DNA from: Gammaproteobacteria bacterium
GTDB taxonomy: Bacteria > Pseudomonadota > Gammaproteobacteria > Pseudomonadales > Pseudohongiellaceae
Length of the DNA: 50,768 nt
Reading direction: 5' to 3'
Assembly: GCA_038148435.1 (NCBI GenBank)
Contig: JAYQVM010000002.1
Coordinates: 1 to 50,768, forward strand
The notes under the pieces: model-generated
Databases searched by the model: none
What the model was told of the DNA's origin: nothing
What the model saw: only the letters and a program-made list of their open reading frames with translations
Position numbers and translations under genes: made by a program
Part shown: positions 1,042 to 48,609 of the stretch, in pieces
How positions within the stretch are numbered: the first letter of the stretch is position 1
Layout of the letters: the number at the start of each line of letters is the position of its first letter

Positions 1042-1302
1042 ATGAAGACATTGACAGCATTTTTCCTGACCCTGTCAGTGCTGAGCCTGCTCTCAGCCTC
1101 AAGTCTTCTTGCGCAGGAGAAAAGTCCTACAGCCGACGCGGCAACGCAGCTTGATCAAAGCGCTGCCCTCGAGCCGCAAGCGGAAACCGCCCCCACACCA
1201 GCAGAGGGCGACAATGCCCCGTCCGTTACCAACAATGAAGATTTCAATCCCAGTGTACAGATATCTGAAGACCTGTCCGTCTCTTTTCCTGTTGATATCT
1301 AA
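1042..1302 (+). CDS. Small secreted acidic Pro/Ala-rich protein (86 aa); first gene of the MotA-vWA operon
   Basis: It has an N-terminal signal peptide 'MKTLTAFFLTLSVLSLLSASSLLA/QE'. The mature part is low-complexity P/A/E-rich. It ends 9 nt before the next gene. I recognise no family. Confidence 0.55.
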   Translation: MKTLTAFFLTLSVLSLLSASSLLAQEKSPTADAATQLDQSAALEPQAETAPTPAEGDNAPSVTNNEDFNPSVQISEDLSVSFPVDI

Positions 1303-1311
1303 GGAAGCCCT

Positions 1312-2127
1312 ATGAAACAACAAGGCATCATTTCCGATTTTGTCTATCAGGTCTTTGCCCTGATTATTTCGGTCATTTTTGTTCACGCTGTTTATGTTGC
1401 CGTGATCCGTCCAAGTGCCGAAGCCATCATGGCCCAACAAAGCGCTATGCAGGAAGCTAACCCTGATTATGTGCAAGAGCGCTCTTTGTATGTTGTCATG
1501 CGCGATTATGAACAGGAAACTTGTATCATCCTGATGTTCTGGGCCCTGTCTATTATCGGGCTGAAGGTATGGCGTAACCGCAAGGAAAACAACCTGCTAC
1601 AGCGCCCCTTGTTGAATGTGTCAGAAGGCATGAGCATTCTGCCTGAAGATGCTCGTAACTTCGCCCGTCCAGTTCAGGCCCTGCACCCTGAGGAACGGGA
1701 ATTCCTATTGCCTAGGGCGCTCTTGTCTGCTCTGCAGCGCTTCAATACCACACGCAGCATCCAAGATGTCTCGAGTGTGGTTAAGGATGTCTGTAACTCC
1801 GAAGCTGAACGCCTGGAAAGTGAGCTTACTATTGTGCGTTATATTGCTTGGGCCATTCCCTCCATCGGTTTTTTGGGAACCGTTCGCGGCATCGGGGAGG
1901 CGTTGGGTCAGGCACAGAGTGCTGTCAGTGGCGATATTCTTGGGGTCACCACCTCTCTGGGGGTGGCCTTCAATTCAACCTTTATTGCTCTGGTTGTCAG
2001 TATCATCATCATGTTTGTCCTTTACCAGTTACAACTTCTGCAGGACCGCCTAGTGCTTGATACCCAGGACTATTGTGACAACTATCTTATTCGGCATATG
2101 CAGGTTCCCGATCATGATGATGATTAA
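1312..2127 (+). CDS. MotA/TolQ/ExbB-family proton-channel protein (271 aa, about 4 TM)
   Basis: The C-terminal signature 'WAIPSIGFLGTVRGIGEALG...TSLGVAFNSTFIALVVSIIIM' parallels ExbB/TolQ 'APFxGLFGTVWGI...GIAEALxxTAxGLxxAIPA'. An SD 'AAGGAAG' lies 6 nt upstream. Two N-terminal TM helices, a cytoplasmic loop of about 95 aa, then two C-terminal TM helices. Confidence 0.85.
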   Translation: MKQQGIISDFVYQVFALIISVIFVHAVYVAVIRPSAEAIMAQQSAMQEANPDYVQERSLYVVMRDYEQETCIILMFWALSIIGLKVWRNRKENNLLQRPLLNVSEGMSILPEDARNFARPVQALHPEEREFLLPRALLSALQRFNTTRSIQDVSSVVKDVCNSEAERLESELTIVRYIAWAIPSIGFLGTVRGIGEALGQAQSAVSGDILGVTTSLGVAFNSTFIALVVSIIIMFVLYQLQLLQDRLVLDTQDYCDNYLIRHMQVPDHDDD

Positions 2128-2132
2128 GCCAT

Positions 2133-3398
2133 ATGACTTCGCTGATTGAACTGCATGACCGTAATATTCGCATCAGCTCGCCGCAGGGCTTATTGCTACA
2201 GAGCCCTGGCTTTGCCAACACGGCCAGCAAAGTGCCGGTCTTCGGCAAGGAGGCCCAAGAAATAACCCGATTGCACCCGCAGGAAAACTTCAATCAATTC
2301 TGGTTCCAGCTCAGCCTTGACCCTTTGGTTAACAAGAACAAACATTTTCGCCACCAGGCCGATCTGGCCTATGGCCATTTAAATAGCCTGCTCACCCAAC
2401 TGAAACTGGCAGGAGAGGCCATCTTCGCAGTACCCAGTCATTACAGTCCCAATCAACTTGCAACGCTGCTGGGTCTGGTCAAACACTGCCCGGTTGATGC
2501 CGCCGGCCTGGTGGATCTGTCCCTACTGGCATTGGCGCAATTGAAGGAGCATCAACATTCCGTATTTATGGATGTCCAGTTACATCAGATCGTCCTGACT
2601 CGCGCCTCTCGGCATGAAGGAGAAATTGTTCGTGAAAAGGTGATTTCAGTTCCAGGAGCCGGACTACTAGCTTTACAGGATGCTTGGGTCAATACCATCA
2701 CGGATGCCTTTATCAAACAAGGCCGCTTTGATCCGCTGCACAATGCCGATACCGAACAGTACATGTATAACGAGTTACAAAACTGGTTAAGCCGCCTCAA
2801 CAGCGAACAGGAAATTCTACTGGAGATTAACAACAAGGGAACTATATATCAGGCCAACCTAAGCCTGAAAAACATTGAGCAGCGCGCCCAGAATATCTAC
2901 AAGCGGGTTGCCCAGGAGCTAGACGCCATGGCTTTAGAAGACAGCGCTGTCTTTGCCCTGGCGCGATTCGCTGAAATGCCTGGTATCACTCAGGCATTAC
3001 CCGATATCCAGGCTGTGCCGGAAGAGCGCTTGGCCGAAAACGCTTATGAGCATCTAAATCTGATCAAGGCTGAGGCTGACGCCATCAAGCTGGTCGCACG
3101 GCTGCCTCTCTCTCAGGGGCAACGCCCGATGGGTTACCAGACCCCTGCCAAATCACGCCCCTCTCACTTTTTATACCAGCACAAGGCTTATGCACTGCCC
3201 AAGCTAGACCTGCCTGAATTAAAGCTCAGCACGCCGATTAGAGTAAGTTTGCAGGAGCAGTGCTATTGGCTTCATAATATTCCAGAGCTGGACTTACAGT
3301 TAAATGGCGCCCCCGTGAACGAGCCTGCCATTCTGAAAGTAGGTGACTGCCTAAAGGTAAACAATAACTTAACCATTGAGTTTATCCAGGTGCAGTAA
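2133..3398 (+). CDS. Degenerate Hsp70/actin-fold (nucleotide-binding-domain-like) protein with a C-terminal FHA-like segment (421 aa)
   Basis: By-eye alignment to the DnaK NBD gives four matches. 'VFGKEAQEITRLHPQENF' matches 'LVGQPAKRQAVTNPQNTL'. 'AIFAVPSHYSPNQLATLLGLVKHCPVDAAGLVDLSLLALA' matches '[41 protein letters not shown]'. 'VFMDVQLHQIVL' matches 'AVYDLGGGTFDI'. 'ARFAEMPGITQAL' matches 'GGQTRMPMVQKKV'. The phosphate-binding motifs are replaced (ELHDRN, DVQLHQ). The tail 'LQLNGAPVNEPAILKVGDCLKVNNNLTIEFIQV' resembles the end of an FHA domain. No signal peptide. Confidence 0.55.
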   Translation: MTSLIELHDRNIRISSPQGLLLQSPGFANTASKVPVFGKEAQEITRLHPQENFNQFWFQLSLDPLVNKNKHFRHQADLAYGHLNSLLTQLKLAGEAIFAVPSHYSPNQLATLLGLVKHCPVDAAGLVDLSLLALAQLKEHQHSVFMDVQLHQIVLTRASRHEGEIVREKVISVPGAGLLALQDAWVNTITDAFIKQGRFDPLHNADTEQYMYNELQNWLSRLNSEQEILLEINNKGTIYQANLSLKNIEQRAQNIYKRVAQELDAMALEDSAVFALARFAEMPGITQALPDIQAVPEERLAENAYEHLNLIKAEADAIKLVARLPLSQGQRPMGYQTPAKSRPSHFLYQHKAYALPKLDLPELKLSTPIRVSLQEQCYWLHNIPELDLQLNGAPVNEPAILKVGDCLKVNNNLTIEFIQVQ

Positions 3399-4498
3399 TG
3401 GCGAAGGACAAACATAGCAAACGTAATTTTAATCCGATGAGCCTAGCTTTTCTGGACGTTATGTCCTGCGGCTTTGGCGCTGTCGTACTGATCTTCCTCA
3501 TACTGGACCACAATACTCAAAATGCCACCAACGTGTTGGACCCCCGCATGGCAGCAGAAATCAACCTGCTGGAAGAACAGATCCTTAACGGTGAAGCGGG
3601 CCTGGTGAGGGTTCGCAATACCTTATCAGATGTAGACCTTCAGGTTGTAGAAGCTCAGGGTTTAGCACGCTCCATTGAAGAGGAAATTGATAATTTTATG
3701 GATCGGCTTCGGGAGCTGGAGGAGAACAACAGTTCCGGCGAAGATGAGATCATGCGCCTAGAACAAGAAATTGCCGCACTGGAAGCCGAGCTGGAAGATC
3801 TGCGAGAAGCCGAAGACCAGTTCACCGGTAATAATATCCGTCAGTTTGTTGGTGATGGTAACCGGCAATACCTGACTGGCCTGATACTGGGCGGCAATCG
3901 CATACTTCTGCTGGTAGATATGTCGACCAGTATGCTAGATGACACCATCGTTAATATTATTCGCCGTCGAAATATGTCTGATGATGCCAAGTTGAATTCC
4001 GATAAATGGCAAAGCGTCCAGAATACGATTGACTGGCTGACCACGCAATTACCTCCACCCAGCCAGTATCAAATTTATGCTTTCAGCGAAGGCGTCAGCC
4101 CGCTGATACCGGGAACGATGGGACAGTGGCTGGAAGTCGCTGACGAGGTTCAGCTAAGTGAAGCAGTGGAAAACTTGCAGCTCATGATTCCTGAGGGGGG
4201 AACCAATCTGACAGGTTTATTCCAGGCTGTACAGGGGCTCTCGCCGCTGCCTGATAATATTTTTTTGATCACGGATGGCCTGCCAACCCGAGATAATCGG
4301 GCCCCGCGCAACAACATCATTTCCGGTCGAGACCGGGAACGCCTGTTTGAGCAGTCAATGGAGTTTCTCCCCGCCGGGATTCCCGTGAATGTCATCCTGA
4401 TGCCGCTGGAGGGAGACCCCATGGCCGCATCTTATTATTGGCAGTTAGCTGTCGCTACTGGCGGATCTTTCATGAGTCCTTCGGAAGACTGGCCCTAG
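3398..4498 (+). CDS. ExbD/TolR-like TM anchor, coiled coil and vWA (MIDAS) domain protein, paralog 1 (366 aa)
   Basis: The start overlaps the previous stop (TAATG). The N-terminus 'NPMSLAFLDVMSCGFGAVVLIFLIL' resembles ExbD/TolR 'PxIDVMLVLLIIF', with a TM Asp at 3455-3457. Residues about 50-140 are heptad-like and charge-rich ('EIMRLEQEIAALEAELEDLREAEDQ'). vWA motifs are 'LLVDMSTSM' (DxSxS at 3917-3931), 'GGTNLTGL' and 'IFLITDGLPT'. Confidence 0.75.
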   Translation: MAKDKHSKRNFNPMSLAFLDVMSCGFGAVVLIFLILDHNTQNATNVLDPRMAAEINLLEEQILNGEAGLVRVRNTLSDVDLQVVEAQGLARSIEEEIDNFMDRLRELEENNSSGEDEIMRLEQEIAALEAELEDLREAEDQFTGNNIRQFVGDGNRQYLTGLILGGNRILLLVDMSTSMLDDTIVNIIRRRNMSDDAKLNSDKWQSVQNTIDWLTTQLPPPSQYQIYAFSEGVSPLIPGTMGQWLEVADEVQLSEAVENLQLMIPEGGTNLTGLFQAVQGLSPLPDNIFLITDGLPTRDNRAPRNNIISGRDRERLFEQSMEFLPAGIPVNVILMPLEGDPMAASYYWQLAVATGGSFMSPSEDWP

Positions 4499-4506
4499 GT
4501 GCAACC

Positions 4507-5505
4507 ATGGCAAAACGACGCGACAATGACTCCTTTAATATCGCTTTCCTAGATGTGATGTCCTGCGGCTTCGGGGCCATGATTCTGCTGCTGATGATTA
4601 CCCGGGTGACCTCGCCAGTTCCGCTGGAAGTCACCGAGGATAGTAGTAGCGGCTCTGTGATGGATCTACAGGAACAATTGTTCGAAATTCGCGGAGAGAC
4701 TAACATCCTCAACCGTGAACTTAATGCGAAGCATGAACAGCTGTCCGTTCATGAAGAGCAGATTGCACGCCTTCGCCGGGAGCTCAGTTCGCTGGAAGAT
4801 CAGCTGAGCAATTCTTCCGACCAGTCATCCGTCAATGCCATTCTGGAAGGACAGCTGGCACTGGCCAGACAACAGCTGACGGAGGAAATGCAACGACTTC
4901 AGGCCAATCAGGGGAACCTGCGCCTCACAGAGTCGGTCGGCGGCGTTCCTGTCGACAGTGAATATATTATTTTTATTATTGATACCTCCGGCAGTATGTA
5001 TAACTACAGCTGGTCACGCATGCTGGAGGTGTTTATTGACACCCTCGACATCTACCCTGAGGTCAAAGGCATTCAGGTGCTCAATGATATGGGTGAGTAT
5101 ATGTTCAATACCTTCCGTGGTGACTGGATTCCCGATACCCCGGCACGACGTTCTGCCATTATTCAGCGGCTGCGAACCTGGAACCCCTTTAGTAACAGCA
5201 GCCCAGTAGAAGGCATCACCTATGCCATTAATACCTTCTATGAGCCAGATAAAAAAATCAGCATTTATGTGCTCGGCGACGAATTTTCCGGCAATTCCAT
5301 TGCTGACGTTGTCGATACTGTTGACAGAATCAATCGTGCCGATGCCCGAGGCAATCGCCTGGTACGTATCCATGGAATTGGTTTCCCCGTGCAATTTGCC
5401 CAACCACGCATGTTCCAGACCACTGGTATTCGCTTTGCTGCGCTGATGAGAGAGCTAGCAAAACGCAATGGTGGAACCTTTGTCGGCCTAAGCGATTTTT
5501 ACTGA
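4507..5505 (+). CDS. ExbD/TolR-like TM anchor, coiled coil and vWA domain protein, paralog 2 (332 aa)
   Basis: I chose the ATG at 4507, which has an SD 'AGGTG' 6 nt upstream and removes the overlap of the 4438 ORF with the previous gene. The N-terminus is 'DSFNIAFLDVMSCGFGAMILLLMI' (Asp at 4552-4554). The coiled coil includes 'QIARLRRELSSLEDQLS...LTEEMQRLQANQ'. The vWA MIDAS is 'FIIDTSGSM' (DxSxS at 4981-4995). The later vWA motifs have diverged ('SSPVEG', 'VLGDEFSG'). Confidence 0.75.
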   Translation: MAKRRDNDSFNIAFLDVMSCGFGAMILLLMITRVTSPVPLEVTEDSSSGSVMDLQEQLFEIRGETNILNRELNAKHEQLSVHEEQIARLRRELSSLEDQLSNSSDQSSVNAILEGQLALARQQLTEEMQRLQANQGNLRLTESVGGVPVDSEYIIFIIDTSGSMYNYSWSRMLEVFIDTLDIYPEVKGIQVLNDMGEYMFNTFRGDWIPDTPARRSAIIQRLRTWNPFSNSSPVEGITYAINTFYEPDKKISIYVLGDEFSGNSIADVVDTVDRINRADARGNRLVRIHGIGFPVQFAQPRMFQTTGIRFAALMRELAKRNGGTFVGLSDFY

Positions 5506-5606: not shown

Positions 5607-6269
5607 ATGCGGGAAATGATGATTTTAATGATGAGCAGCCTTAAACACATGTTTACCGGGTTCAGGTTTTTGGCCCCTGTTGTTTTATGCAGCCTTTTGC
5701 TGGGTTGCTCTGTCAGCGTTATCGAAATCAGCGGTAACTACCCCTCACCTCTGGTGACTCAACTGCCTCTGACTCTCGGTGTGATTTACGACGACAATTT
5801 CACTAACTACAGCTTTACTGAAATTGATGAATATTCCGGCGAGGATCAGTACATCATCAATAGTGGGACGACTCAGGTTCAGCTATTCAATACTATACTG
5901 CCCGCCGTATTTTACGAGGTGGTCTTTCTTGACAATTTAGAGGATGTTGCATCCCATCCGGGACTGGACATGGTCTTTCAGCCTGCCATCGAGGAATTTC
6001 AGGTCGGCCTGCCCCAAAAAACCCGGCTGGACGTTTATGAAATTTGGGTAAAATATAACATGCGCCTGTCGGCTCCCGATGGGGCTTCGATTGCCGATTG
6101 GGTTATGACCGCCTATGGGAAGTCTCCGCAGGAAACATTTGGCTCGGTGGATGCCGGGGTTAATGAGGCGGCTGTGGAAGCTTTCCGGGATCTGGCGGGC
6201 ACGTTTTCACTGGGCTTCACAAGCATCCCTGAAGTCAACGATTGGTTACGCAGCAATAACATGCTTTAG
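5607..6269 (+). CDS. Predicted lipoprotein, no recognised family (220 aa or less)
   Basis: It has a signal peptide with the lipobox 'LLLGC|S'. Several in-frame Met codons near the start leave the exact start uncertain. Same strand as the vWA operon, 101 nt downstream of it. Confidence 0.55.
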   Translation: MREMMILMMSSLKHMFTGFRFLAPVVLCSLLLGCSVSVIEISGNYPSPLVTQLPLTLGVIYDDNFTNYSFTEIDEYSGEDQYIINSGTTQVQLFNTILPAVFYEVVFLDNLEDVASHPGLDMVFQPAIEEFQVGLPQKTRLDVYEIWVKYNMRLSAPDGASIADWVMTAYGKSPQETFGSVDAGVNEAAVEAFRDLAGTFSLGFTSIPEVNDWLRSNNML

Positions 6270-6355: not shown

Positions 6356-7027
6356 ATGAAAACGGTCAATCTCTTATTGAAAGCCTTTCTGGCTGGAGGC
6401 TTACTATTGCTAATAAGCGCCTGTACTACAACCGAAATTGATGAATTCCGCCAGTCCTCAACAAAAATTGAGGAAGATTCTAGCATTGTCATTCTCGGTC
6501 GTAGACAGAGCAACGCCTATGAGACTGAGGAGAATTTTGTACAGTGTGTTGGCAATGTAGTTGCCTCAGGTTCAGATGGTATCAACGTCATCCCTGAACC
6601 GCTCTTTCTGGATGAAATGTTTCCTTTTTTCGAGCCGCGAATGGCTCCGATGCGTACCGATCATCTTGCCCAGTTAATGCAGCAGGAAGAAGCAGCCAAG
6701 AAATTTGAAGATTTTGGTGTTAAATACATTGTCTGGCTGGATGGTCAGACTCAGCGCTCCGGGGAAACAGGCTCTCTTTCCTGTGTCATTGGTCCTGGCG
6801 GTGGCGGATGCTTTGGTTTTGGCACCTGGGTCGATGACTCCAATTTTGAAGCCGAAATATGGGATTTGGATAATCTCAGCACAGCCGGCGCTATCAGTGC
6901 AGACGCCAATGGACAGTCCTATGTGCCGGCTATAGTTTTGCCTATTCCTCTGTTGGCCAGAGTTGAGACCAGCGCCTGTAGTGGTCTGGGAGAGCAGCTC
7001 AAAACCTTCCTTCGTGGCAATGCCTAA
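6356..7027 (+). CDS. Predicted lipoprotein, no recognised family (223 aa)
   Basis: 'MKTVNLLLKAFLAGGLLLLISAC|TTT' is a classic lipoprotein signal with lipobox. There is a Gly-rich segment 'GPGGGGCFGFGTW' and several Cys residues. Confidence 0.6.
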   Translation: MKTVNLLLKAFLAGGLLLLISACTTTEIDEFRQSSTKIEEDSSIVILGRRQSNAYETEENFVQCVGNVVASGSDGINVIPEPLFLDEMFPFFEPRMAPMRTDHLAQLMQQEEAAKKFEDFGVKYIVWLDGQTQRSGETGSLSCVIGPGGGGCFGFGTWVDDSNFEAEIWDLDNLSTAGAISADANGQSYVPAIVLPIPLLARVETSACSGLGEQLKTFLRGNA

Positions 7028-7097: not shown

Positions 7098-8558
7098 ATG
7101 AAATGCTTGGCTCGACCTCACCATATTAGCAAAGCTCTTTCCATTCATACCTTAATTGGGACCTTAACTTGCGTCATGGTCCTTAGTGCCTGTGCCGTCA
7201 ACCCAACCGGGGGAGTCGATTTCGTCACCATGAGCGAAAGTCGCGAAATTGAGCTGGGCACCGAACTGCATGAAAAAATGCAGCAAGAAACCCCTCTTTA
7301 CCGTGATCAGGGCCTACAGGAATACGTCAATGAAATCGGTCAGAAGCTGGCTGCCGTGTCTCACCGACCTGATATTAAATACACCTTTACCGTTGTCGAT
7401 AGTCCTGATATCAATGCGTTTGCCCTTCCTGGTGGTTTTATTTATATCAACCGGGGACTTATTGCCTACCTTAATTCTGAAGACCAGCTGGCTGCCGTAC
7501 TGGGACATGAAATCGGCCATGTGACTGCCCGTCATGCCGTCCGCCAGCAGGCCGCTCGACAGACGAACAGTGTAATTGCTGGCGTTGCTGTGATTGCAAC
7601 TGGAGTTGGCTCCTTGGGTGAAACAACTTCTTTAATTGGTGGTGCTCTGCTCAGCGGTTATGGCAGAGACATGGAACTCGAATCGGACGGTCTGGGAGCA
7701 GAATATCTAGCAAATGCCGGCTATGACCCGCTTGCGATGGTGGAGGTCATTGGTGTGCTGAAAAACCATGAAGATTTTACCAAGCGGACCTCATCCGGTG
7801 CTGTCAGTTATCATGGTGTGTTTGCCACGCACCCGCGCAATGATACCCGTCTTCAAGAGGTGGTCGGCCGTGCCAGCGAGTTGTCAGAACAGCAGTCCAC
7901 TGTGGTGGACCCGGCTATTTTTAGGGAAAAGGTAAACGGCCTGGTACTGGGACCAAGCCTGCAGATTGGTGGCAGTGAAGCGCGCAACCGTTATTATCAG
8001 AGCCTGCTGAACTATACGATGGTTTTTCCTGATGGCTGGCGTTGGGATGAAACAACTACCCAGTTAAATGCCCGAGATGAAGCTGAGTCTCTGGCCATCA
8101 ATGTCAGAGTACAGCGCCTGCAACAGATAAAGGAGCCTCGCCTCTTTATTCAGGAGGAGTTAGATGTCGACGAGTTGCAGAAAACGGAAGCCCTCAACCA
8201 GTTTGGCCTTCAAGGCTATACCGGGATTAACCCGGCCGACCAGACACGTCTGGCTGTCATCTATTATGGCCCCCGGGCGTTTGTTTTACAGGCCTCCCAA
8301 AGTGGCGGTGAAATATCCGAGGAAAATGATGAAATTCTCATGCAGGCAATTCGCAGCTTCCGTCCCATTGCAGCCAATGAGCGCAGTTTTGCTAACCCAG
8401 TGAGCATTGAATATGTTCGCTCAGATGGCCGCACTTATGAGCAGCTGGCAGAAGACAATATGTTCGATGAAAATGCAGTTGGTTTGCTTAGGCTCTACAA
8501 CGCCGACTATCCTCGTGGTCAGCCAGTCGCCGGAGAGTGGATCAAGATCGTTCGCTAG
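7098..8558 (+). CDS. M48-family zinc metalloprotease, lipoprotein-anchored (486 aa)
   Basis: The lipobox is 'VLSAC|AV'. The zinc motif 'LGHEIGHVTARH' follows 'NAFALPGGFIYINRGL', as in M48 (HtpX/LoiP/BepA-type) peptidases. A downstream 'ELESDGLG' likely supplies the third ligand. I do not recognise the C-terminal ~220 aa. Confidence 0.85.
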   Translation: MKCLARPHHISKALSIHTLIGTLTCVMVLSACAVNPTGGVDFVTMSESREIELGTELHEKMQQETPLYRDQGLQEYVNEIGQKLAAVSHRPDIKYTFTVVDSPDINAFALPGGFIYINRGLIAYLNSEDQLAAVLGHEIGHVTARHAVRQQAARQTNSVIAGVAVIATGVGSLGETTSLIGGALLSGYGRDMELESDGLGAEYLANAGYDPLAMVEVIGVLKNHEDFTKRTSSGAVSYHGVFATHPRNDTRLQEVVGRASELSEQQSTVVDPAIFREKVNGLVLGPSLQIGGSEARNRYYQSLLNYTMVFPDGWRWDETTTQLNARDEAESLAINVRVQRLQQIKEPRLFIQEELDVDELQKTEALNQFGLQGYTGINPADQTRLAVIYYGPRAFVLQASQSGGEISEENDEILMQAIRSFRPIAANERSFANPVSIEYVRSDGRTYEQLAEDNMFDENAVGLLRLYNADYPRGQPVAGEWIKIVR

Positions 8559-10315: not shown

Positions 10316-11509
10316 ATGCTGAGCCTCATTAATAAAAACATCATCCTGGGTATTACTGGCGGCATTGCGGCTTATAAAAGTGCTGAACTGTGCCGCCTTC
10401 TTATTAAGGCAGGAGCTCAGGTGAGAGTTGTGATGACGGATGCTGCCTGTGAATTTATTACCCCACTGACACTGCAGGCATTATCGGGTCATAAAGTGCA
10501 CAGAGAATTACTGGATGAAGATGTAGAGGCCGCTATGGGACATATTGAGCTGGCTCGCTGGGCCGATCTCATCCTGATTGCCCCGACCAGTGCTGACTTT
10601 ATGGCACGGCTGGCGCATGGAAAGGCTAGCGATTTGTTAAGCGCGCTTTGTCTAGCCCGGCGATGTCCTCTGGCCATTGCTCCCGCTATGAACCAGGCAA
10701 TGTGGTCAAAACAAAATACTCAGGAAAATCTCCAGACTTTACAGCAAAAACAGGTGCATATTCTGGGGCCGACTGAAGGCGATCAGGCTTGTGGTGATGT
10801 CGGTCCGGGACGTATGCTGGAAGCAGAGGAACTGTGCCAGCTTGCCGCTGGCTTTTTCCAGCAGGGCAGCCTGGCGGGATTAAGCGTCTGCATCAGTGCC
10901 GGACCCACCCGAGAAGCAATAGATCCGGTGCGTTACATTAGTAATCATAGCTCAGGCAAAATGGGCTATGCAATTGCTCAAGCTGCCGTTGAAGCAGGGG
11001 CCGCTGTCACATTGGTCAGCGGCCCCGTTTCACTGTCAGTGCCAGAATCACTCACGCTAAAGCCGGTGGAAAGTGCTGCTCAAATGCATGCGGCCTGCCT
11101 GGACAGTCCCTGCGATATTTTTATCGGCGTGGCTGCAGTCGCCGACTATCGACCTGTGAAGATACTCCCGATCAAGATCAAGAAGTCTGAGTCAAGCATG
11201 ACTATTAGACTGGAAAAAACGCCGGATATCCTGGCAGACATTGCAGGTCAAGAAAAGCCTCCTTTCTGTGTAGGCTTTGCCGCAGAAACGGAAAACCTAG
11301 AAGCGTATGCTCTGGCAAAGTTGCAGGACAAAAGGCTAGATATGATTGTTGCCAATCAGGCCACTGAGACTTTCAATCGGGAAGTGGCCAGCGTTACTGT
11401 ATACTGGCCTGGCCATAACAAGGCTTTTACAGGCCTGCGTAAAAGCCTCCTAGCGAGGAAACTCATTGAGCTGATCGCAGAATGTTATCGAACTAAAGCC
11501 CTCTTATAA
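10316..11509 (+). CDS. coaBC: Bifunctional phosphopantothenoylcysteine decarboxylase / phosphopantothenate-cysteine ligase
   Basis: It has an N-terminal flavoprotein domain ('ILGITGGIAAYKSAELCRLL', 'PAMNQAMW') and a C-terminal CoaB domain ('SAGPTREAIDPVRYISNHSSGKMGYAIA'). 397 aa. Confidence 0.95.
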   Translation: MLSLINKNIILGITGGIAAYKSAELCRLLIKAGAQVRVVMTDAACEFITPLTLQALSGHKVHRELLDEDVEAAMGHIELARWADLILIAPTSADFMARLAHGKASDLLSALCLARRCPLAIAPAMNQAMWSKQNTQENLQTLQQKQVHILGPTEGDQACGDVGPGRMLEAEELCQLAAGFFQQGSLAGLSVCISAGPTREAIDPVRYISNHSSGKMGYAIAQAAVEAGAAVTLVSGPVSLSVPESLTLKPVESAAQMHAACLDSPCDIFIGVAAVADYRPVKILPIKIKKSESSMTIRLEKTPDILADIAGQEKPPFCVGFAAETENLEAYALAKLQDKRLDMIVANQATETFNREVASVTVYWPGHNKAFTGLRKSLLARKLIELIAECYRTKALL

Positions 11510-16645: not shown

Positions 16646-18775
16646 ATGGAGGCTTTTATCAGTAAGCAAACCATTGAAATGCTGGCTGAGAGCCTGGCCG
16701 AATATCTCGAACCGGCCCAGGTTAATCTCGTGCGCCGCGCCTATTTTTATGCCGAGCAAGCCCATGATGGCCAGCAGCGCATGTCTGGCGATCCCTATGT
16801 TATCCATCCTCTGGCAGTAGCCTGCATATTACGCGAAATGCATATGGACCATCAGAGTATGGCTGCTGCCATGTTGCATGATGTGATTGAAGATACAGGC
16901 ATTCCCCAGCAGGCAATAGCGAGTCAGTTTGGGCAGGCAATCGCCGACCTGGTTGATGGTGTGAGTAAACTGAACCGCATTGAATTCAGTACCCGTGCCG
17001 AAGCACAGGCTGATAATTTCCAGAAAATGGCGCTTGCCATGGCCAAGGATATTCGCGTCGTTCTGGTAAAACTAGCGGACCGCCTACACAACATGCGCAC
17101 CCTTAGCGCACTGAAGCCAGACAAACAGCGTCGAATTGCCCGGGAAACCCTTGAAATTTATGCACCAATTGCCAATCGGCTTGGCATGAACAATTCCCGT
17201 ATTGAGCTTGAGCAGCTGGGCTTTGAGGCTCTCTATCCGATGAGGGCACGACGCCTGGAAGCTGCTGTAAAAAATATTACCGGTCATCGTAAGGAAATCG
17301 TGACACAGATTGAGTCAGCCTTAAGCGCCTGTCTGCGGCGCGAGAATTTAGCCGGACGGGTTATTGGCAGGGAAAAACATATCTACAGCATTTACAAGAA
17401 AATGCGAGAAAAGCGTATCTCCTTTCGGGAAATTACCGACGTTTTTGCTTTCCGCATCGTGACCGATGAAGTCGATACCTGTTACCGGATTCTGGGTGCT
17501 GTGCATAATCTCTACAAACCGGTCCCCGGACGTTTCAAGGATTACATTGCCATTCCCAAGGTCAATGGCTATCAATCTCTACATACTACTCTGTTCAGCA
17601 TACATACCATCCCCATCGAAATCCAGATTCGCACGGAAGACATGGAGGCTATGGCCAATAATGGCATTGCCGCTCACTGGCTCTACAAATCAAGCAGTGA
17701 AATGACCAATCAAAGTCATATCCGTGCCCGCCAGTGGGTGCAGGACTTGCTGGAAATGCAGGAACAGGCTGGGAATTCGCAGGAGTTTATCGAGCATGTT
17801 AAAACCGACCTGTTTCCAGATGAAATTTATGTGTTTACCCCTAAGGGAGCTATTCTCGAGCTGCCTTCCGGATCTACAGCTGTCGACTTTGCCTATGCGG
17901 TACATACTGATGTTGGCAATACCTGCGTCGCCTGCCGTATCAATCGACAGCTTGCGCCTCTGAGCCAACCGCTGCAAAGTGGCCAGACAGTGGAAATTAT
18001 CGCGTCAGGCTCACACCCGAATCCCGCCTGGCTTAACTTCGTTGTTTCTGGCAAGGCTCGCAGCAATATTCGACACTACCTTAAAAATCAGCGCCGCTCA
18101 GAAGCCATTACATTGGGACGTCGACTGCTCAACAAAACTCTGGCTGGGTTTGGCTATAATTTGTCAAATATACCTAAAGACAAAGTCGGCGGCCTGCTGG
18201 AAGAAACTGATTTTGATGTGCTGGATGACTTGCTGGAAGATATCGGACTCGGTAATCGCATGGCCTACATAGTCGCCCGTCGTCTATTGCCCGAAGATGG
18301 CAATTCTCGGCCCTCGCTTGGCGAAAAAGATATTACCCTGGCCATCCACGGCAACGAAGGTATGGTAATGTCCTTCGCCAAATGTTGTCACCCGATTCCC
18401 GGCGACCCGATTTTAGGTTACGTTTCTTCTGGGCGCGGCATGATCGTACATGTAGAAAGCTGCAATAACGTGGCTGAAATTCTCAATGATCCGAAAAAGC
18501 ATCTGGCGCTGCGCTGGGATCCTGGACTAGAAGGCGAGTTCCCTGTTGAACTCCGGATCGAACTAGAGCATCAGCGTGGCATGATTGCCACACTGGCCAA
18601 TACCGTGACTGCCTGTGAAGCAAACATTGAAAAAATCAGTATGGCAGATCGCGATGCTCAGTTCAGTATCGTTAATCTTACTGTCAACGTTCGCAACCGT
18701 ATTCATCTAGCTCGTGTTATGAAACGGGTGCGGGTTATCCGAACTGTTAGCAAGGTAAGTCGCATCAAGAACTGA
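16646..18775 (+). CDS. spoT: Bifunctional (p)ppGpp synthetase / hydrolase (RelA/SpoT homolog)
   Basis: It has the HD hydrolase motif 'HDVIEDT', a synthetase region 'FKDYIAIPKVNGYQSLHTT', and TGS and ACT-like C-terminal regions. It lies downstream of rpoZ, as spoT does in E. coli. 709 aa. Confidence 0.9.
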   Translation: MEAFISKQTIEMLAESLAEYLEPAQVNLVRRAYFYAEQAHDGQQRMSGDPYVIHPLAVACILREMHMDHQSMAAAMLHDVIEDTGIPQQAIASQFGQAIADLVDGVSKLNRIEFSTRAEAQADNFQKMALAMAKDIRVVLVKLADRLHNMRTLSALKPDKQRRIARETLEIYAPIANRLGMNNSRIELEQLGFEALYPMRARRLEAAVKNITGHRKEIVTQIESALSACLRRENLAGRVIGREKHIYSIYKKMREKRISFREITDVFAFRIVTDEVDTCYRILGAVHNLYKPVPGRFKDYIAIPKVNGYQSLHTTLFSIHTIPIEIQIRTEDMEAMANNGIAAHWLYKSSSEMTNQSHIRARQWVQDLLEMQEQAGNSQEFIEHVKTDLFPDEIYVFTPKGAILELPSGSTAVDFAYAVHTDVGNTCVACRINRQLAPLSQPLQSGQTVEIIASGSHPNPAWLNFVVSGKARSNIRHYLKNQRRSEAITLGRRLLNKTLAGFGYNLSNIPKDKVGGLLEETDFDVLDDLLEDIGLGNRMAYIVARRLLPEDGNSRPSLGEKDITLAIHGNEGMVMSFAKCCHPIPGDPILGYVSSGRGMIVHVESCNNVAEILNDPKKHLALRWDPGLEGEFPVELRIELEHQRGMIATLANTVTACEANIEKISMADRDAQFSIVNLTVNVRNRIHLARVMKRVRVIRTVSKVSRIKN

Positions 18776-18896: not shown

Positions 18897-21008
18897 ATGT
18901 CATTCAAACGCTCAGTATCTCCTTCAACTGACTTACGGCGCCTGCCTTTAACAACACTGAAGGGGGTGGGTCCCTCACTTGAAAAAAAATTACACAGGTT
19001 AAATATTTTTAGCGTCCTCGACCTGGTATTTCATTTGCCCTTTCGCTATCAGGACCGTACTCGAATAAGCCGCATAGCCGCCTTACAGCCTGGTCGCGAT
19101 CTGGTCATTGAAGGCCTCATCATCGGTAGCTCCATTCTTTTAGGACGTCGTAGAAGCCTTTTGGTAAAAATTCAAGATAACAGCGGTATTGCCAATCTGC
19201 GTTTTTTTCACTTCAGCGCTACTCAACAAAAAAACCTGACTGAAGGGAAACGCCTACGCTGCTTTGGCGAGGCGCGCTGGGGGCGCAGTGGTGTAGAACT
19301 GTATCATCCGGAATACAAAATTTTAGATGAAGAAGATACGCTACCGATCTCTGCTCATCTAACTGCCATCTATCCGGCTACTGAAGGCATTCAGCAAGCC
19401 CGCCTACGTCATATTATCGAGCAGGCTTTGACTTTGTTGAAAAAATATCCAGGCTCACTAAAAGAATTGTTACCGAATGAATTATTGCAAGAATTGAGAA
19501 CCGTTGCTCTCTTAGAGGCGCTAATTTTTATTCACCGCCCCCCACATGATACAGACATCGAATTACTGGAAAGCGGCAAGCACCCCTACCAGCAGCGCTT
19601 GGCTTTTGAAGAACTGCTGGCACATTATTTGTGCCTACGAAGGCTCCGTGATCAGGCTAGAAAAGGGCAGGCCCCTCCATTAAAGTCAAGTATAAGCCTG
19701 GTGCCTAAACTGCTCGAGAGGCTGCCCTTCCGTCTGACGCGAGGACAGGAGCAAGCATTTACCGATGTCAGTCAAGACCTTGCAAGCGATGTCCCTATGC
19801 TCAGATTGATCCAGGGTGATGTCGGGTCTGGCAAGACCATGGTTGCTCTGATGGCCGCTTTGCAAAGTGTCGAGAATAACTTCCAGGTAGCCCTCATGGC
19901 TCCGACCGAAATTCTGGCCGAGCAGCACTATATTAATTTTTCAACACTTCTTGAAGGCTGCGATCTTGAGATATGCTTTTTAAGTGGCAAGGTTAAGGGC
20001 AAGAAGCGCCAGACGGCTCTTGCTGCCATAGCGTCAGCACAGGCACAAGTCCTAGTCGGCACACATGCCCTCTTTCAGGAAGACGTGCAATTCAAGCAAC
20101 TAGGTTTGATGATCGTGGATGAACAACATCGCTTTGGCGTCCATCAACGGCTGGCCCTGCTGGAAAAGGGGCAAGGTGTCGGACAGACTCCACATCAACT
20201 TATCATGACCGCCACACCGATCCCGCGCACCCTGATGATGAGCGCCTATGCTGACCTGGACTGCTCCATCATTGACGAGCTTCCCCCCGGGCGTACCCCA
20301 GTCAATACGGTTCTGATTGCCGACAATCGTCGTGAAGAGGTAATTGAAAGGATTCGCCAGGCCTGTGCTGATGGACGACAAGCCTACTGGGTTTGCAACC
20401 TGATTGAAGAGTCAGATGTTTTACAGTGCCAGGCCGCTGAAGCCACGCATACTTTGCTTAAGGAAAAGTTAGGTTCCCTCAAGGTGGGCCTGATTCACGG
20501 ACGCATGAAAGCCGCCGATAAAAGCCTCATCATGAATGCCTTCAAGCGGGGAGAGTTGAATTTGCTGGTTGCGACCACGGTGATAGAAGTTGGTGTCGAT
20601 GTTCCCAATGCTTCCCTGATGGTGATAGAAAATCCCGAGCGTCTGGGTCTTGCCCAGTTACACCAGTTGAGGGGGCGTGTCGGTCGTGGCAGCGCAGAAA
20701 GCCATTGCCTCCTACTTTACCACCAGCCACTTTCCGAGTTAAGCCAGCAACGTCTGGGCATCATGCGCCAGAGCCATGATGGCTTTTTTATCGCCCAGAA
20801 AGACTTGGAAATACGGGGCCCAGGAGAAGTGCTGGGCACGCGACAGACAGGTTTGATGAACTATAAGCTGGCGGATTTGCGTCGTGATGCTCATTTGCAG
20901 GAACAGATCAAAACCTGGGCCGAACGTATCAGACAGCACTCACCAGCTTACATTGACCCTCTGATTGACCGCTGGCTTTCTATCAATCAGCAGTACGGGA
21001 ATGTTTGA
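18897..21008 (+). CDS. recG: ATP-dependent DNA helicase RecG
   Basis: It has a wedge domain, Walker A 'QGDVGSGKT', 'DEQHRFG', and 'LHQLRGRVGRG'. 703 aa. The spoT-recG neighbourhood is conserved. Confidence 0.95.
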   Translation: MSFKRSVSPSTDLRRLPLTTLKGVGPSLEKKLHRLNIFSVLDLVFHLPFRYQDRTRISRIAALQPGRDLVIEGLIIGSSILLGRRRSLLVKIQDNSGIANLRFFHFSATQQKNLTEGKRLRCFGEARWGRSGVELYHPEYKILDEEDTLPISAHLTAIYPATEGIQQARLRHIIEQALTLLKKYPGSLKELLPNELLQELRTVALLEALIFIHRPPHDTDIELLESGKHPYQQRLAFEELLAHYLCLRRLRDQARKGQAPPLKSSISLVPKLLERLPFRLTRGQEQAFTDVSQDLASDVPMLRLIQGDVGSGKTMVALMAALQSVENNFQVALMAPTEILAEQHYINFSTLLEGCDLEICFLSGKVKGKKRQTALAAIASAQAQVLVGTHALFQEDVQFKQLGLMIVDEQHRFGVHQRLALLEKGQGVGQTPHQLIMTATPIPRTLMMSAYADLDCSIIDELPPGRTPVNTVLIADNRREEVIERIRQACADGRQAYWVCNLIEESDVLQCQAAEATHTLLKEKLGSLKVGLIHGRMKAADKSLIMNAFKRGELNLLVATTVIEVGVDVPNASLMVIENPERLGLAQLHQLRGRVGRGSAESHCLLLYHQPLSELSQQRLGIMRQSHDGFFIAQKDLEIRGPGEVLGTRQTGLMNYKLADLRRDAHLQEQIKTWAERIRQHSPAYIDPLIDRWLSINQQYGNV

Positions 21009-31119: not shown

Positions 31120-33339
31120 CTAGATTGCTTCAAGCCTAGCATATGACATCACAAGCCACTTGCCACCAACATTATCAAAATTTATATGTACCCTGGCATT
31201 TTTTCCTTTGCCTTCGGAATTTAATACAACCCCTTCACCAAACTTCGGGTGCTTGACGCGCTGTCCCAGGCTAAGGAAGGCACTATCTGACTGGACCTCT
31301 AAACCCGCGATAGTAACATGCTCGTCATGATTTTGCGCTCTTTTGCCATAGTCCTGAAAATAAGTGCTGCGGCTTATTCTGCCCTGTAAACGTACTTCTT
31401 CGAGTAGCTCTTGTGGCAGCTCTCTAAGAAAACGAGAGGCTCGGGTGAGAGTTTCTTCCCCGTGCAGACGCCTAGATTCTGCATGGCTTAAATACAGCTT
31501 TTGCATGGCTCGTGTAATACCGACGTAACATAGCCGACGTTCTTCTTCCAGGCCCGACTGTGAGTCCATCGACATCTGATGCGGGAACAAACCTTCTTCC
31601 AGGCCAGCTATAAATACCAAGGGAAACTCTAGCCCCTTGGCCGAATGCAGGGTCATCAACTGTACAGCATCCTCGCCGGCGCCAGCTTGCGTATCGCCTG
31701 CATCCAGTGCTGCCTTATCAATAAAGCCAGCCAGCACTTCCCTGATGGAGCCTTCGTTCGCATCGCCCAGTTCTTCCAGCGTGAATGCCTTGGCCGCATT
31801 GACCAGCTCATCCAGGTTTTCCTGGCGAATTTTGGCTTTTTCACCGCCTTCCTTTTCGTAATGCTTGGGCAAGCCGCTACGTAGAATCGTCTGCTCACAT
31901 AGTTCATCAAGATCCTTACCTTGGGCGAAGTCATCCAGCTCATTAATGAGATTCATAAACCCATCAAGGCTGATTCGAGCGCGTGACGGCAAGAGGCTTT
32001 CTCTGAGCGCTTTCACGGCAGCTTGCCACAAAGAGAGGTTTTCATGTCGAGCGATACTTCGCAGACTATCCAGCGTCTTATTTCCGATGCCACGAACAGG
32101 CGTATTGATAACGCGTTCCAAGGCAGCATCATCATCCCGACTGGAAACCAGTCTGAGATAGGCCATAGCATTTCGAATTTCCTGTCGCTCATAGAAACGA
32201 AAGCCGCCATAAATACGATAGGGTATGCCTAGCCGCAACAAGGCTTCTTCTAGTTCGCGAGATTGGGCATTTGAGCGGTATAAAATAGCCGCCTCACTGG
32301 CCTTGTTACCCCTTTCTGACCACTGCTCAAGCTGACCACAAATGAAACGTGCCTCGTCCTGTTCGTTATAGGCTGAATAAACTGAAATCGTCTCGCCATC
32401 CTTGTCTTCAGTCCACAGCTCTTTGCCCAGCCGACCCTGATTATTAGCAATCAATGTATTGGCGGCCTTTAGTATGTTGCCTGTGGAGCGGTAATTCTGT
32501 TCAAGCCTTACAATATCTGCCCCATTGAAATCCTGGGAAAAATGCTGGATATTTTCAATTCGGGCTCCACGCCACCCATAAATAGACTGATCATCATCAC
32601 CGACAGCTGTCACATCAGCGCGTGAAGCAGCCAGTACTCTCAGCCAAGCATATTGAATAGCATTGGTGTCCTGAAATTCATCAACCAGAATATGTTTAAA
32701 GCGCGCCTGATAATGAGCCAACAGTTTGGGGTTTTTTAACCACAATTCATGTGAACGCAGTAGCAGCTCGCCAAAATCCACCATGCCACCCCGTTCACAG
32801 GCCTCTTCGTAGGCACTATAGACTTTCAGCATATTACTGATAAATTCATCGCCATAACTTTCTATGCTATTCGCACGCAGGCCTTCATCTTTCTGTTCAT
32901 TAATAAACCACTGACACTGCCTAGCTGGATATCGACTTTCATCAATGTCCAACAGCTTGTGAACTCGCTTGATCAGGCGTAGCTGATCATCTGCATCAAG
33001 AATCTGGAACTTTTCCGGCAAGCCGGCTTCTTCCCAGTGGGCGCGCAAGAGGCGATGGGCTAGTCCATGAAAAGTGCCAACCCACATACCGCCGACAGAG
33101 CCCTTTAGAAGCTCTTCTATTCGCACCCGCATCTCATTGGCTGCCTTGTTGGTAAAGGTAACCGCCAGCAAGCTGTGGGGAGAGATCCCTTCTGTGGCTA
33201 TCAACCAGGCGATGCGATGAACCAGTACGCGGGTTTTGCCACTGCCGGCACCGGCCAGCACCAGCAGGTTGCCGACATCTGCGGTAACTGCCTGGCGTTG
33301 TGCATCATTTAGAGGCTCAAGTATATGTGTAATATCCAT
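31120..33339 (-). CDS. uvrD: DNA helicase II (UvrD)
   Basis: I chose the start at 'MDITHILEPLNDAQRQAV'. It has Walker A 'AGAGSGKT' and 'VDEFQDTN'. The C-terminal 'HPKFGEGVVLNSEGKGKNARVHINFDNVGGKWLVMSYARLEAI' parallels the E. coli UvrD C-terminus. The 34-aa upstream extension in the track is probably not translated. Confidence 0.9.
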   Translation of the reverse strand: MDITHILEPLNDAQRQAVTADVGNLLVLAGAGSGKTRVLVHRIAWLIATEGISPHSLLAVTFTNKAANEMRVRIEELLKGSVGGMWVGTFHGLAHRLLRAHWEEAGLPEKFQILDADDQLRLIKRVHKLLDIDESRYPARQCQWFINEQKDEGLRANSIESYGDEFISNMLKVYSAYEEACERGGMVDFGELLLRSHELWLKNPKLLAHYQARFKHILVDEFQDTNAIQYAWLRVLAASRADVTAVGDDDQSIYGWRGARIENIQHFSQDFNGADIVRLEQNYRSTGNILKAANTLIANNQGRLGKELWTEDKDGETISVYSAYNEQDEARFICGQLEQWSERGNKASEAAILYRSNAQSRELEEALLRLGIPYRIYGGFRFYERQEIRNAMAYLRLVSSRDDDAALERVINTPVRGIGNKTLDSLRSIARHENLSLWQAAVKALRESLLPSRARISLDGFMNLINELDDFAQGKDLDELCEQTILRSGLPKHYEKEGGEKAKIRQENLDELVNAAKAFTLEELGDANEGSIREVLAGFIDKAALDAGDTQAGAGEDAVQLMTLHSAKGLEFPLVFIAGLEEGLFPHQMSMDSQSGLEEERRLCYVGITRAMQKLYLSHAESRRLHGEETLTRASRFLRELPQELLEEVRLQGRISRSTYFQDYGKRAQNHDEHVTIAGLEVQSDSAFLSLGQRVKHPKFGEGVVLNSEGKGKNARVHINFDNVGGKWLVMSYARLEAI

Positions 33340-33601
33340 CACGCATATTTTAACAAAATCTGTCGTTTTAAAATATTTCCAATAGTCATCCTGTTCTCGT
33401 ATGCAATTGTAAAAAAACTTGCTACTATCAATCGATACCAAAACGGTTAAGCAAATTTTTGCTGCCTGAATTGGTCAGAAGATTCTGATAGTCATGAGGT
33501 AATTGTGACTCTCTGAGACTTCGATATAGGTTAACGCTTTCAGGCGTTAGCAACAGGAAATATACCAAGCAATTGGTAATGCTAAGAGAGAAAAAAGAAA
33601 T

Positions 33602-37635: not shown

Positions 37636-37639
37636 GGTT

Positions 37640-47952: not shown

Positions 47953-48609
47953 TCAATCAGTTTTTCCCAACTCCAGTAAGTGTCTGGAGCCTGGTTCTCC
48001 CGGTAAACTCAACTCATGTAGCGCGAGTACCCGAAAGGTTGTCGGCATCTCTGCAATTTCCTGCTCAGGGTACTGCCCTTTCATTGCTAGTAGCCTGCCC
48101 CTTGTTGCCAGCAGGTGTTGGCTTTGTTCAATAAACTGCTTCAGTGTCGAAAAAGCCCTGCTAAGGACAGTATCAAATGCCTCCTGACTTTGATAGCTTT
48201 CAACTCGCTGCTGGACAATATCAACATTTTCCAGCTTGAGCTTTACCACACTTTGGTAAACGAAGCGCATCTTTTTGCCGTTGCTGTCCAGTAGACTGAA
48301 ACGGGATTGCGGCAGGCAAATGGCCAGCAACAAGCCGGGAATCCCGGCTCCGGTCCCGACATCCAGAATTTTTTTTCCGCGTATATAGGGCAGAATACTC
48401 AAACTGTCCAGAAGGTGCAGCCTCAGCATTGCTTGCGGCTCTTTGATGCCAGAAAGGTTGTAGGCCTGGTTCCACTTCACCAGTAGTTCCAGAAAATCAA
48501 GCATTTTTTCCTGCTTGGCCATATCAATATCCAGCTTTAAATAACTGATACCGTCACTTAATTCGGCACTTAGCGAGGTGTAATCAAACTGCCGCATTAC
48601 CTGCTTCAA
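47953..48609 (-). CDS. rsmG: 16S rRNA (guanine527-N7)-methyltransferase RsmG (GidB)
   Basis: '[23 protein letters not shown]' and the SAM motif '[13 protein letters not shown]'. It sits between mnmG and parA. Confidence 0.93.

Follow-up and report, generated by a model that had tools for sequence, protein, structure and literature searches.

Ion-driven motors of the 5:2 type power flagella, nutrient import by the Ton system, maintenance of the outer membrane by Tol-Pal, gliding and type 9 secretion by GldLM, and phage defence by Zorya. Recently, another class was added by prediction. In the sections considered here, a survey predicted TolQ-like genes paired with two von Willebrand factor A (vWA) proteins which carry an Asp-bearing helix, without tolR or exbD (PMC12204202; Mol Biol Evol 2025). 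According to these sections the vWA genes tightly co-occur with tolQ homologs and come as heterologous pairs; the proteins lack the SHLS motif of TonB and TolA and possess an Asp-bearing 'transpore helix'; the family is widespread in Proteobacteria and Verrucomicrobia; and AlphaFold3 complexes place the Asp helices in a TolQ-like pentamer with the Asp residues inside a threonine ring (PMC12204202). There the matter is a prediction: function is given as unknown and neither a phenotype nor a structure is reported in these sections. Here we analyze a cluster of five genes, g1 to g5, in a stretch of 50,768 nucleotides from a gammaproteobacterium of the Pseudohongiellaceae (GenBank assembly GCA_038148435.1, contig JAYQVM010000002.1, positions 1 to 50,768, forward strand), in the following called the window. 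We propose that this cluster encodes an ion-driven inner-membrane motor of the 5:2-type MotA/TolQ/ExbB class in which a heterodimer of g4 and g5 takes the place of ExbD, TolR or MotB; we put the probability of this reading at about 0.6. In this reading g2 is the ring subunit, g4 and g5 are the axle proteins, g3 is a cytoplasmic partner and g1 a small secreted protein; two lipoprotein genes, d1 and d2, follow downstream (Table 1).

The conservation of the cluster was examined in a scan of one genome per species, seeded with an alignment of g4 and g5. Relatives of g4 or g5 were found in at least 592 species-level genomes. The comparison set was formed by the best 80 of these genomes, which contribute 81 loci (L001 and so on). 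All 80 are Pseudomonadales-type gammaproteobacteria, i.e., Pseudohongiellaceae, Halieaceae, Porticoccaceae and SAR86-like bins. Among the cultured carriers are Pseudohongiella sp. O18, Pseudohalioglobus lutimaris HF004 and Litorirhabdus singularis IMCC14734. The metagenome bins behind loci L002, L006, L010, L013, L026, L038, L043, L061, L068 and L080 bear the title 'uncultured Enterobacteriaceae', 'uncultured Klebsiella sp.' or 'Klebsiella pneumoniae'; these titles look wrong because the sequences group with genomes of the Pseudohongiellaceae and Halieaceae type.

The order g2-g3-g4-g5 is kept. g4 and g5 are found in 81 of 81 loci, g3 in 80 and g2 in 78, and the misses fall mostly at contig ends. 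This arrangement is far beyond chance. An earlier description of this DNA, made from the letters and open reading frames (in the following the initial annotation), had expected the five families to be conserved together. This is the case: about 80 loci have genes 2 to 5 in unchanged order, and g1 recurs by position and by its terminal motif in 72.

How does the cluster compare with the predicted family? Its vWA genes lie tightly beside the tolQ-like g2, and no gene of the cluster matches PF02472 or an OmpA-type family. g4 and g5 are a heterologous pair of paralogs with 22% identity, both present at every locus, and share one plan: a basic tail, one membrane helix, a helical stalk and a vWA head. 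Their N-termini carry the Asp helix and no SHLS motif. By these published characters the cluster appears to belong to the family, the comparison being one of characters and not a direct one with the Idiomarina loihiensis seed (PMC12204202). Common to both are a TolQ-like gene, two different membrane-tethered vWA genes and the proposed mechanism. A difference is that a protein with an Hsp70 fold and a forkhead-associated (FHA) domain does not occur in the paper, and that the sections considered make no mention of a g1-type peptide, of the lipoproteins or, for the TolQ-vWA family, of a module with PEGA/FGE-sulfatase or TPR/kinase proteins (PMC12204202). The initial annotation had announced a candidate new machine. 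This is only half right: no experimentally characterised system matches, but the concept was published as a prediction in 2025. The verdict thus is that the cluster joins a recently predicted and experimentally untouched motor class. What is added here is g3 as a universal partner, the invariant terminus of g1, the lipoproteins d1 and d2, an upstream gene module and a larger ancestral cluster.

The ring subunit is the most readily recognized member. g2 matches Pfam PF01618 (MotA_ExbB) with E=3.1e-15 and 56.5 bits against a cutoff of 22.9, as had been expected when it was first described as a MotA/TolQ/ExbB channel protein. It falls below the cutoff of every named NCBIfam equivalog, i.e., TolQ (5.7e-8; 32.8 bits, cutoff 221), ExbB (4.2e-5) and MotA (0.023; 13.6 bits, cutoff 340). 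The closest solved relative is TolQ 8odt (E=0.034 in a single-sequence search of the PDB). T190 and T223 of g2 align with T145 and T178 of E. coli TolQ, the pore-lining threonines of the last two membrane helices, and both are invariant in 79 of 79 orthologs. By analogy with its family g2 is presumed to form a pentameric channel ring. A borderline hydrophobic segment, ETCIILMFWALSIIGLKVW, is located at residues 69-87 (window 1516-1572), after the first helix and before the conserved channel helices. This segment could give g2 a MotA-like topology of four helices, though the sequence is closest to TolQ.

The second pillar of the argument is the membrane helix of g4 and g5. Asp20 of g4 (codon GAC, 3455-3457) and Asp16 of g5 (codon GAT, 4552-4554) are both located inside 'AFLDVMSCGFGA', and the motif common to the two proteins is [FY]LD[VIC][MI]xCGFGA. 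The Asp is invariant in 169 distinct N-termini covering both paralogs. The initial annotation had both proteins begin with this helix; helix and codons are as described, but the position at the very start is not, since a basic tail of 13-17 residues precedes it. With the Asp as anchor point, the motif aligns with D23 of E. coli TolR and D25 of ExbD at the same depth, and hhalign finds exactly this register. Before the helix is the basic tail, after it the sequence is acidic. According to the positive-inside rule these charges argue for an N-in, C-out topology, in which the stalk and the vWA head would be periplasmic. In one homolog of g4 (P0116, residues about 20-50) the segment with the Asp helix is tandemly duplicated, with SMSFLDVISCGFGAV occurring twice; this is either a real variant or an artefact of assembly.

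Beyond the helix, g4 and g5 each continue with about 110 helical residues. The stalk of g4 is helical or coiled-coil at about residues 49-150, with Pfam matches of the coiled-coil type spanning 55-142; in g5 AlphaFold2 predicts helices at 51-102 and 108-137. The distance from the Asp to the vWA metal site, the metal-ion-dependent adhesion site (MIDAS), is 146-156 residues in g4 and 139-147 in g5 (76 loci), while protein identity drops to 47%. At locus L071 both stalks are shorter together. Constrained length and joint shortening fit a paired rod of fixed length, which would measure roughly 15 nm if helical.

At the end of the stalks are the vWA heads. The DxSxS motifs read DMSTS in g4 (3917-3931) and DTSGS in g5 (4981-4995). 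In g4 residues D20, D174, S176, S178 and D293 are invariant, and the MIDAS residues D, S, S and the later Asp are invariant across both paralogs. g4 is just above the cutoff of Pfam VWA_2 (27.9 bits, cutoff 27). g5 is weakly vWA by Pfam (E=0.023); its C-terminal head, modelled by AlphaFold2 with a predicted local distance difference test (pLDDT) score of 80-91, finds solved vWA domains in Foldseek with E from 5e-8 to 1e-5 and probability 1.0, among them ITIH1, ANTXR2, LapA, vWF-A3 and integrin I domains. Thus a vWA domain, as had been anticipated for both proteins, is identified by Pfam in g4 and by predicted fold in g5; the heptad-like stretch, the DxSxS motifs and their coordinates also stand as first described.

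g3, which lacks a membrane segment, has its gene after the MotA-like gene and before the first vWA gene in 80 of the 81 loci. It has no match in Pfam, NCBIfam or PADLOC. Its AlphaFold2 model (pLDDT 90.8) shows the fold of an Hsp70/Hsp110/DnaK nucleotide-binding domain over the first ~325 residues, and Foldseek against the PDB returns the nucleotide-binding domains of Hsp110, DnaK and BiP with E about 1e-14 and probability 1.0. The Hsp70/actin-type fold expected for gene 3 is therefore borne out. Where Hsp70 has its glycine-rich phosphate loops, g3 reads 'ELHDRN' and 'DVQLHQ'; because of these degenerate loops g3 is predicted to be probably without ATPase activity. The last ~80 residues form an FHA-like beta sandwich (about residues 345-420; window 3165-3395). 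There, distant homologs of g3 match the Pfam FHA domain PF00498 with canonical SRxH and HSTxGT motifs, which the g3 of the window does not have, i.e., the domain is degenerate in this lineage. The description of g3 as a cytoplasmic, degenerate Hsp70-like protein was accurate; it had missed the C-terminal domain. A profile of g3 retrieves 2344 clusters at 50% identity with E<=1e-3, of which 1185 have E<=1e-30. By these profile matches g3 is a large unnamed family.

g1 possesses a hydrophobic, signal-like N-terminus and a net charge of -10, in agreement with its description as a small secreted acidic protein. The middle is an acidic linker of low complexity which varies between loci. The C-terminus is different. 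It reads F-x-P-S-x-Q-I-S-E-D-L-S-V-S-F-P-V-D-I, roughly 18 residues (window 1246-1302), and this terminal motif (...SEDLSVSFPVDI; …NPSVQISEDLSVSFPVDI) is almost invariant in 72 loci, i.e., those where a short open reading frame directly upstream of the MotA-like gene could be extracted. It is kept in the distant loci L082 and L084, where the L084 version is RFIPSEQVRADFDVSFPVDI. Pfam and NCBIfam give no family match for g1, d1 or d2. d1 lies directly downstream of g5 in 70 of the 81 loci and again follows g5 in the distant locus L084 (13663-14202, E=3e-18). d2 is conserved in 67 of the 81 loci; its homolog in L084 (717-1406, E=2e-35) is positioned at the upstream end of the same cluster, and this relocation speaks for a functional link and not just for inherited synteny. 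Judged by this gene order, d1 and d2 are probably part of the system.

Upstream of the five genes the relatives carry more. In 66 of the 81 loci, and in distant loci, four extra genes directly precede g1-g5 (Table 1, last row). Pfam and NCBIfam give no match for the 207-aa and 397-aa proteins of the relatives. For the protein with four PEGA repeats and an FGE-sulfatase domain the best NCBIfam match is GldK/PorK, with E=1.4e-30 and 107 bits against a cutoff of 350. In the distant loci L084 and L085 a Ser/Thr kinase is fused to the TPR protein (L084 4226-6517), and the g3 homolog there has a canonical FHA domain (L084 10001-11413). The kinase-fused TPR neighbour together with the canonical FHA domain suggests that g3 may be under phospho-control in L084/L085. 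The extended cluster is retained in the distant loci L082 and L084, where g3 is about 25-27% identical. Neither the 50-kb window, over its whole length, nor the loci of the closest relatives, L002-L007, contain the upstream module, and no kinase is encoded in the window. As far as gene content can tell, the unit is larger than five genes; the ancestral cluster would have been bigger and have become reduced in this marine lineage.

Taken together, the proposed mechanism reads as follows. g2 would form the channel ring. The N-terminal helices of g4 and g5 would sit in the pore of this ring with the Asp near the cytoplasmic end, opposite T190 and T223, as the published AlphaFold3 model also supports. 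Ion flow would then turn the ring against the axle, as in the solved MotAB, ExbBD and TolQR motors. The stalks of g4 and g5, whose length constraint, helicity and terminal vWA fold are described above, would pair as a rod of ~15 nm by which two vWA heads are carried through the periplasm. The MIDAS heads may grip an acidic ligand; candidates are the C-terminal peptide of g1, d1, d2 and, in most relatives, the GldK-like PEGA/FGE protein. At the cytoplasmic face g3 may dock to the ring or to the basic g4/g5 tails, serving as a regulator or clutch. The output is likely to be mechanical work on, or tethering of, a partner in the outer envelope in the manner of Tol-Pal, Ton or GldLM.

We favour this motor because g2 belongs to the ring family and keeps the pore threonines, because ExbD, TolR and MotB have no counterpart in the cluster, because the invariant Asp is at the depth known from TolR and ExbD, and because ring and axle genes strictly co-occur. 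The initial annotation had read g4 and g5 as ion-driven B-type subunits with periplasmic vWA heads, and this is supported in that its checkable predictions on families, folds and co-conservation were borne out.

Several points weigh against the proposed motor. The placement of the helices in the pore at a ratio of 5:2 draws on analogy and on a published prediction for another seed protein. The match of g2 to solved TolQ in the single-sequence search is weak (E=0.034). For the Asp helix against the N-termini of TolR and ExbD, hhalign reports a probability of 7% and P=0.005; the shortness of the segment precludes firm statistics. When a profile of this helix was searched against all PDB sequences, no ExbD, TolR or MotB chain was retrieved, only chance matches to NDUFB4. 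Since neither search reaches significance, homology of the g4/g5 helix to ExbD/TolR is unproven. Further literature searches found no other description of the family and no experiment on any member. Finally, the PEGA/FGE and TPR partners of 66 of the 81 relatives are missing in the window. Because of this missing module and the degenerate FHA domain, the lineage of the window may carry a reduced or differently wired version.

Each of the established motors shares something with the cluster and lacks something that defines it. The similarities with Tol-Pal and Ton are these: the ring subunit is of the same family with conserved pore threonines and with TolQ as closest solved relative, the single helix of the partner has its Asp at the same depth and follows a basic tail, and the likely purpose is to supply the outer envelope with ion energy of the inner membrane. 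The cluster differs from both in that the periplasmic domain of ExbD/TolR and a third subunit of the TolA/TonB type are missing, as are Pal, TolB and a TonB-dependent receptor. The force-bearing arm, coiled coil plus vWA head, would be fused directly to the axle, and the number of membrane segments in g2 may be four instead of three, which is a borderline call. No protein of the cluster matches the ExbD/TolR/MotB, TonB/TolA, Pal/TolB, OmpA-like or ZorC/D families in Pfam, NCBIfam or PADLOC; that the TonB/TolA, Pal/TolB and ZorC/ZorD partners are missing had been stated correctly at the outset. Membership in Ton (ExbB-ExbD-TonB) was rejected because the ExbD domain PF02472 and a TonB-type transducer are unmatched in g1-g5, d1 and d2, and membership in Tol-Pal because TolR, TolA, TolB and Pal are all missing from the cluster, the TolQ score of g2 being below cutoff.

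The same verdict applies to the remaining systems, again for want of defining components. With MotA-MotB and PomA-PomB the cluster shares the A-subunit family and a B subunit with an Asp helix and a periplasmic extension. It differs by the missing OmpA-like domain for cell-wall binding, and MotA is the weakest of the family models for g2; a flagellar stator was rejected because g4 and g5 have no OmpA-like match and no flagellar genes are nearby. Zorya likewise has a MotAB-like ring and axle outside motility (ZorA-ZorB), yet g2 is without the long ZorA tail, the cell-wall-binding domain of ZorB is missing, ZorC, D and E are missing, and there is no defence island; with a weak match to the ZorA core and no other Zor protein, ZorABCD/E was rejected. 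GldLM/PorLM resembles the proposed motor in having a ring and a dimer which extends a long periplasmic arm to an outer complex, and the relatives even have a neighbour protein with an FGE-sulfatase fold and GldK/PorK as its best match. However, there is no homology to GldL, GldM or GldN, and the GldK-like partner is below cutoff and absent from the window, i.e., it is found in relatives only; GldKLMN, the type 9 secretion and gliding system, was rejected. The Bat operons of aerotolerance were rejected as well, since Pfam finds no MoxR or DUF58 in g1-g5, d1, d2, the neighbouring M48 gene or the four upstream-module proteins of L001; the precomputed Pfam matches of the called genes at L001, L082 and L084 contain none either. 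Thus the early statement that none of the characterised stator-powered systems fits is upheld for Ton, Tol-Pal, the flagellar stator, Zorya and GldKLMN.

Rejecting membership does not settle how the cluster works, and three other explanations have to be weighed. The output of the motor could be inverted. The MotB cell-wall domain anchors the flagellar stator, and it is the ring that moves and gives the output in the flagellar and Zorya motors. By the same logic the vWA heads would anchor the axle to some immobile structure of the envelope, for example the lipoproteins or a PEGA protein associated with the cell wall, and the g2 ring would turn and act on g3, converting an event in the envelope into a cytoplasmic signal or response. 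A dedicated cytoplasmic protein of a large family encoded between the ring and axle genes in 80 of 81 loci speaks for this, the canonical FHA domain and the kinase-TPR fusion of L084/L085 are typical signalling parts, and the sole PADLOC match of g2 is the ZorA core (E=1.7e-4). Yet an effector such as a nuclease or a ZorC/D-like protein is missing, as is a defence island; the genes are inherited vertically in the core chromosome; g2 with its 271 aa is without a long cytoplasmic tail of the ZorA type; and in the window the FHA motifs are degenerate and the kinase is absent, so phospho-signalling is not essential to the core function. We consider an inverted output unlikely. A device for secretion or surface movement like GldKLMN/PorKLMN, in which a 5:2 motor and a periplasm-spanning dimer engage an outer ring of FGE-sulfatase fold to move or export surface proteins, appears quite improbable. 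To be sure, the membrane protein with four PEGA repeats and an FGE-sulfatase domain is directly upstream of g1-g5 in 66 of 81 relatives and in distant loci, GldK/PorK is its best NCBIfam match at E=1.4e-30, lipoproteins and a TPR protein accompany it, and the constrained stalk is reminiscent of a periplasmic ruler. But 107 bits are far under a cutoff of 350, the proteins scanned with Pfam and NCBIfam include no GldL, GldM, GldN or SprA/Sov-type family, the FGE/PEGA gene is absent from the 50-kb window and likewise from the closest relatives, and gliding is not known from planktonic marine gammaproteobacteria such as these.

Lastly, there may be no coupling at all: g4 and g5 would be membrane-anchored periplasmic vWA proteins of the BatA/BatB kind, pairs of which occur in aerotolerance operons, the Asp helix would be an anchor peculiar to this family, and g2 an unrelated neighbour, a TolQ paralog using an ExbD/TolR encoded elsewhere. 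That the statistics do not prove homology of the helix to ExbD/TolR speaks for such a view. It is very hard to reconcile with a g2 that strictly adjoins g4/g5 in about 80 genomes and in distant loci, with a charged Asp in a membrane helix that is invariant in 169 sequences of both paralogs, and with a cluster devoid of MoxR and DUF58 partners; moreover, the survey in the sections considered found no tolR or exbD beside the TolQ-vWA family (PMC12204202). We hold to the ion-driven motor with a g4/g5 axle. A bolder extension of it is doubtful as a whole and is offered tentatively: the five genes may be the reduced core of a vertically inherited envelope-spanning machine of ~11 genes, undescribed as a whole, in which the axle, a coiled-coil/vWA heterodimer of fixed length, is turned by a TolQ-like ring against lipoproteins and a GldK-like PEGA/FGE-sulfatase protein, the C-terminal peptide of g1 being the ligand of the vWA metal site and g3 a pseudo-Hsp70/FHA clutch. 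In at least one deeper branch a Ser/Thr kinase would exert phospho-control over this clutch, and in the streamlined marine lineage of the window the clutch would be hard-wired.

Table 1. Features of the window; the last row lists a module of related loci, with positions in those loci
Feature	Position	Strand	Evidence or remark
g1, small secreted acidic protein, 86 aa	1042..1302	+	signal-like hydrophobic N-terminus, net charge -10
g2, MotA/TolQ/ExbB-family ion-channel subunit, 271 aa	1312..2127	+	Pfam PF01618
g3, cytoplasmic, Hsp70-type fold and C-terminal FHA-like domain, 421 aa, without membrane segment	2133..3398	+	AlphaFold2, Foldseek
g4, putative axle subunit A, 366 aa	3398..4498	+	Asp helix, stalk, Pfam VWA_2
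g5, putative axle subunit B, 332 aa	4507..5505 (ATG at 4507)	+	Asp helix, stalk, predicted vWA fold
d1, predicted lipoprotein, 220 aa, lipobox LLLGC	5607..6269	+	no family match; conserved downstream of g5
d2, predicted lipoprotein, 223 aa, lipobox LISAC	6356..7027	+	no family match; conserved neighbour
M48 metalloprotease lipoprotein, BepA-like	7098..8558	+	Pfam Peptidase_M48
coaBC	10316-11509		housekeeping gene
spoT/relA-type	16646-18775		housekeeping gene
recG	18897-21008		housekeeping gene
uvrD	31120-33441	-	housekeeping gene
glmS	35800-37704	-	housekeeping gene
ATP synthase alpha/beta-family subunit gene	41886-43430	-	housekeeping gene
mnmG/gidA	48606-50519	-	housekeeping gene
Upstream module: 207-aa acidic protein, 397-aa lipoprotein, membrane TPR protein, membrane PEGA x4 + FGE-sulfatase protein	L001 2004-7577; L084 2346-8922		

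The five genes share the plus strand with spacings of 9 nt and 5 nt, a one-base TAATG overlap and 8 nt, exactly as initially annotated, and their GC content is uniform and ordinary for the window. A scan for promoters and terminators stayed at chance level and did not define the ends of the operon. From 10316 to 50519 the window is housekeeping core chromosome; with the atp operon, mnmG and glmS near the cluster, the region is probably close to the replication origin. Mobile or defence genes are not found nearby in the window, and tblastn of g5 against 72,556 plasmids gave zero matches. PADLOC returned for the cluster only the weak match of g2 to the ZorA core and coiled-coil noise (LmuB, JetC). 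A defence system was rejected because PADLOC assigns nothing beyond the generic MotA core and because the locus is part of the conserved core chromosome.

Further downstream is the M48 gene (Pfam Peptidase_M48 3.8e-38; NCBIfam BepA 135 bits, below the cutoff of 570). It is present in 62 of the 81 close loci; no counterpart was found in L082 and L084, which are distant. On account of this absence it is likely a mere neighbour, and its membership in the system is doubtful.

If the proposed motor is correct, the known machines would be joined by one in which the axle bears the working arm itself, namely a coiled coil with a metal-dependent adhesion domain at its end. With thousands of protein clusters the family is large, and it is part of the core chromosome of abundant marine and freshwater gammaproteobacteria. 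It therefore probably serves basic envelope biology, and the motor is likely a part of the housekeeping of the envelope. g3, the g1 peptide, the lipoproteins and the GldK-like PEGA/FGE protein provide concrete hypotheses about input, output and regulation of this motor in cultured carriers.

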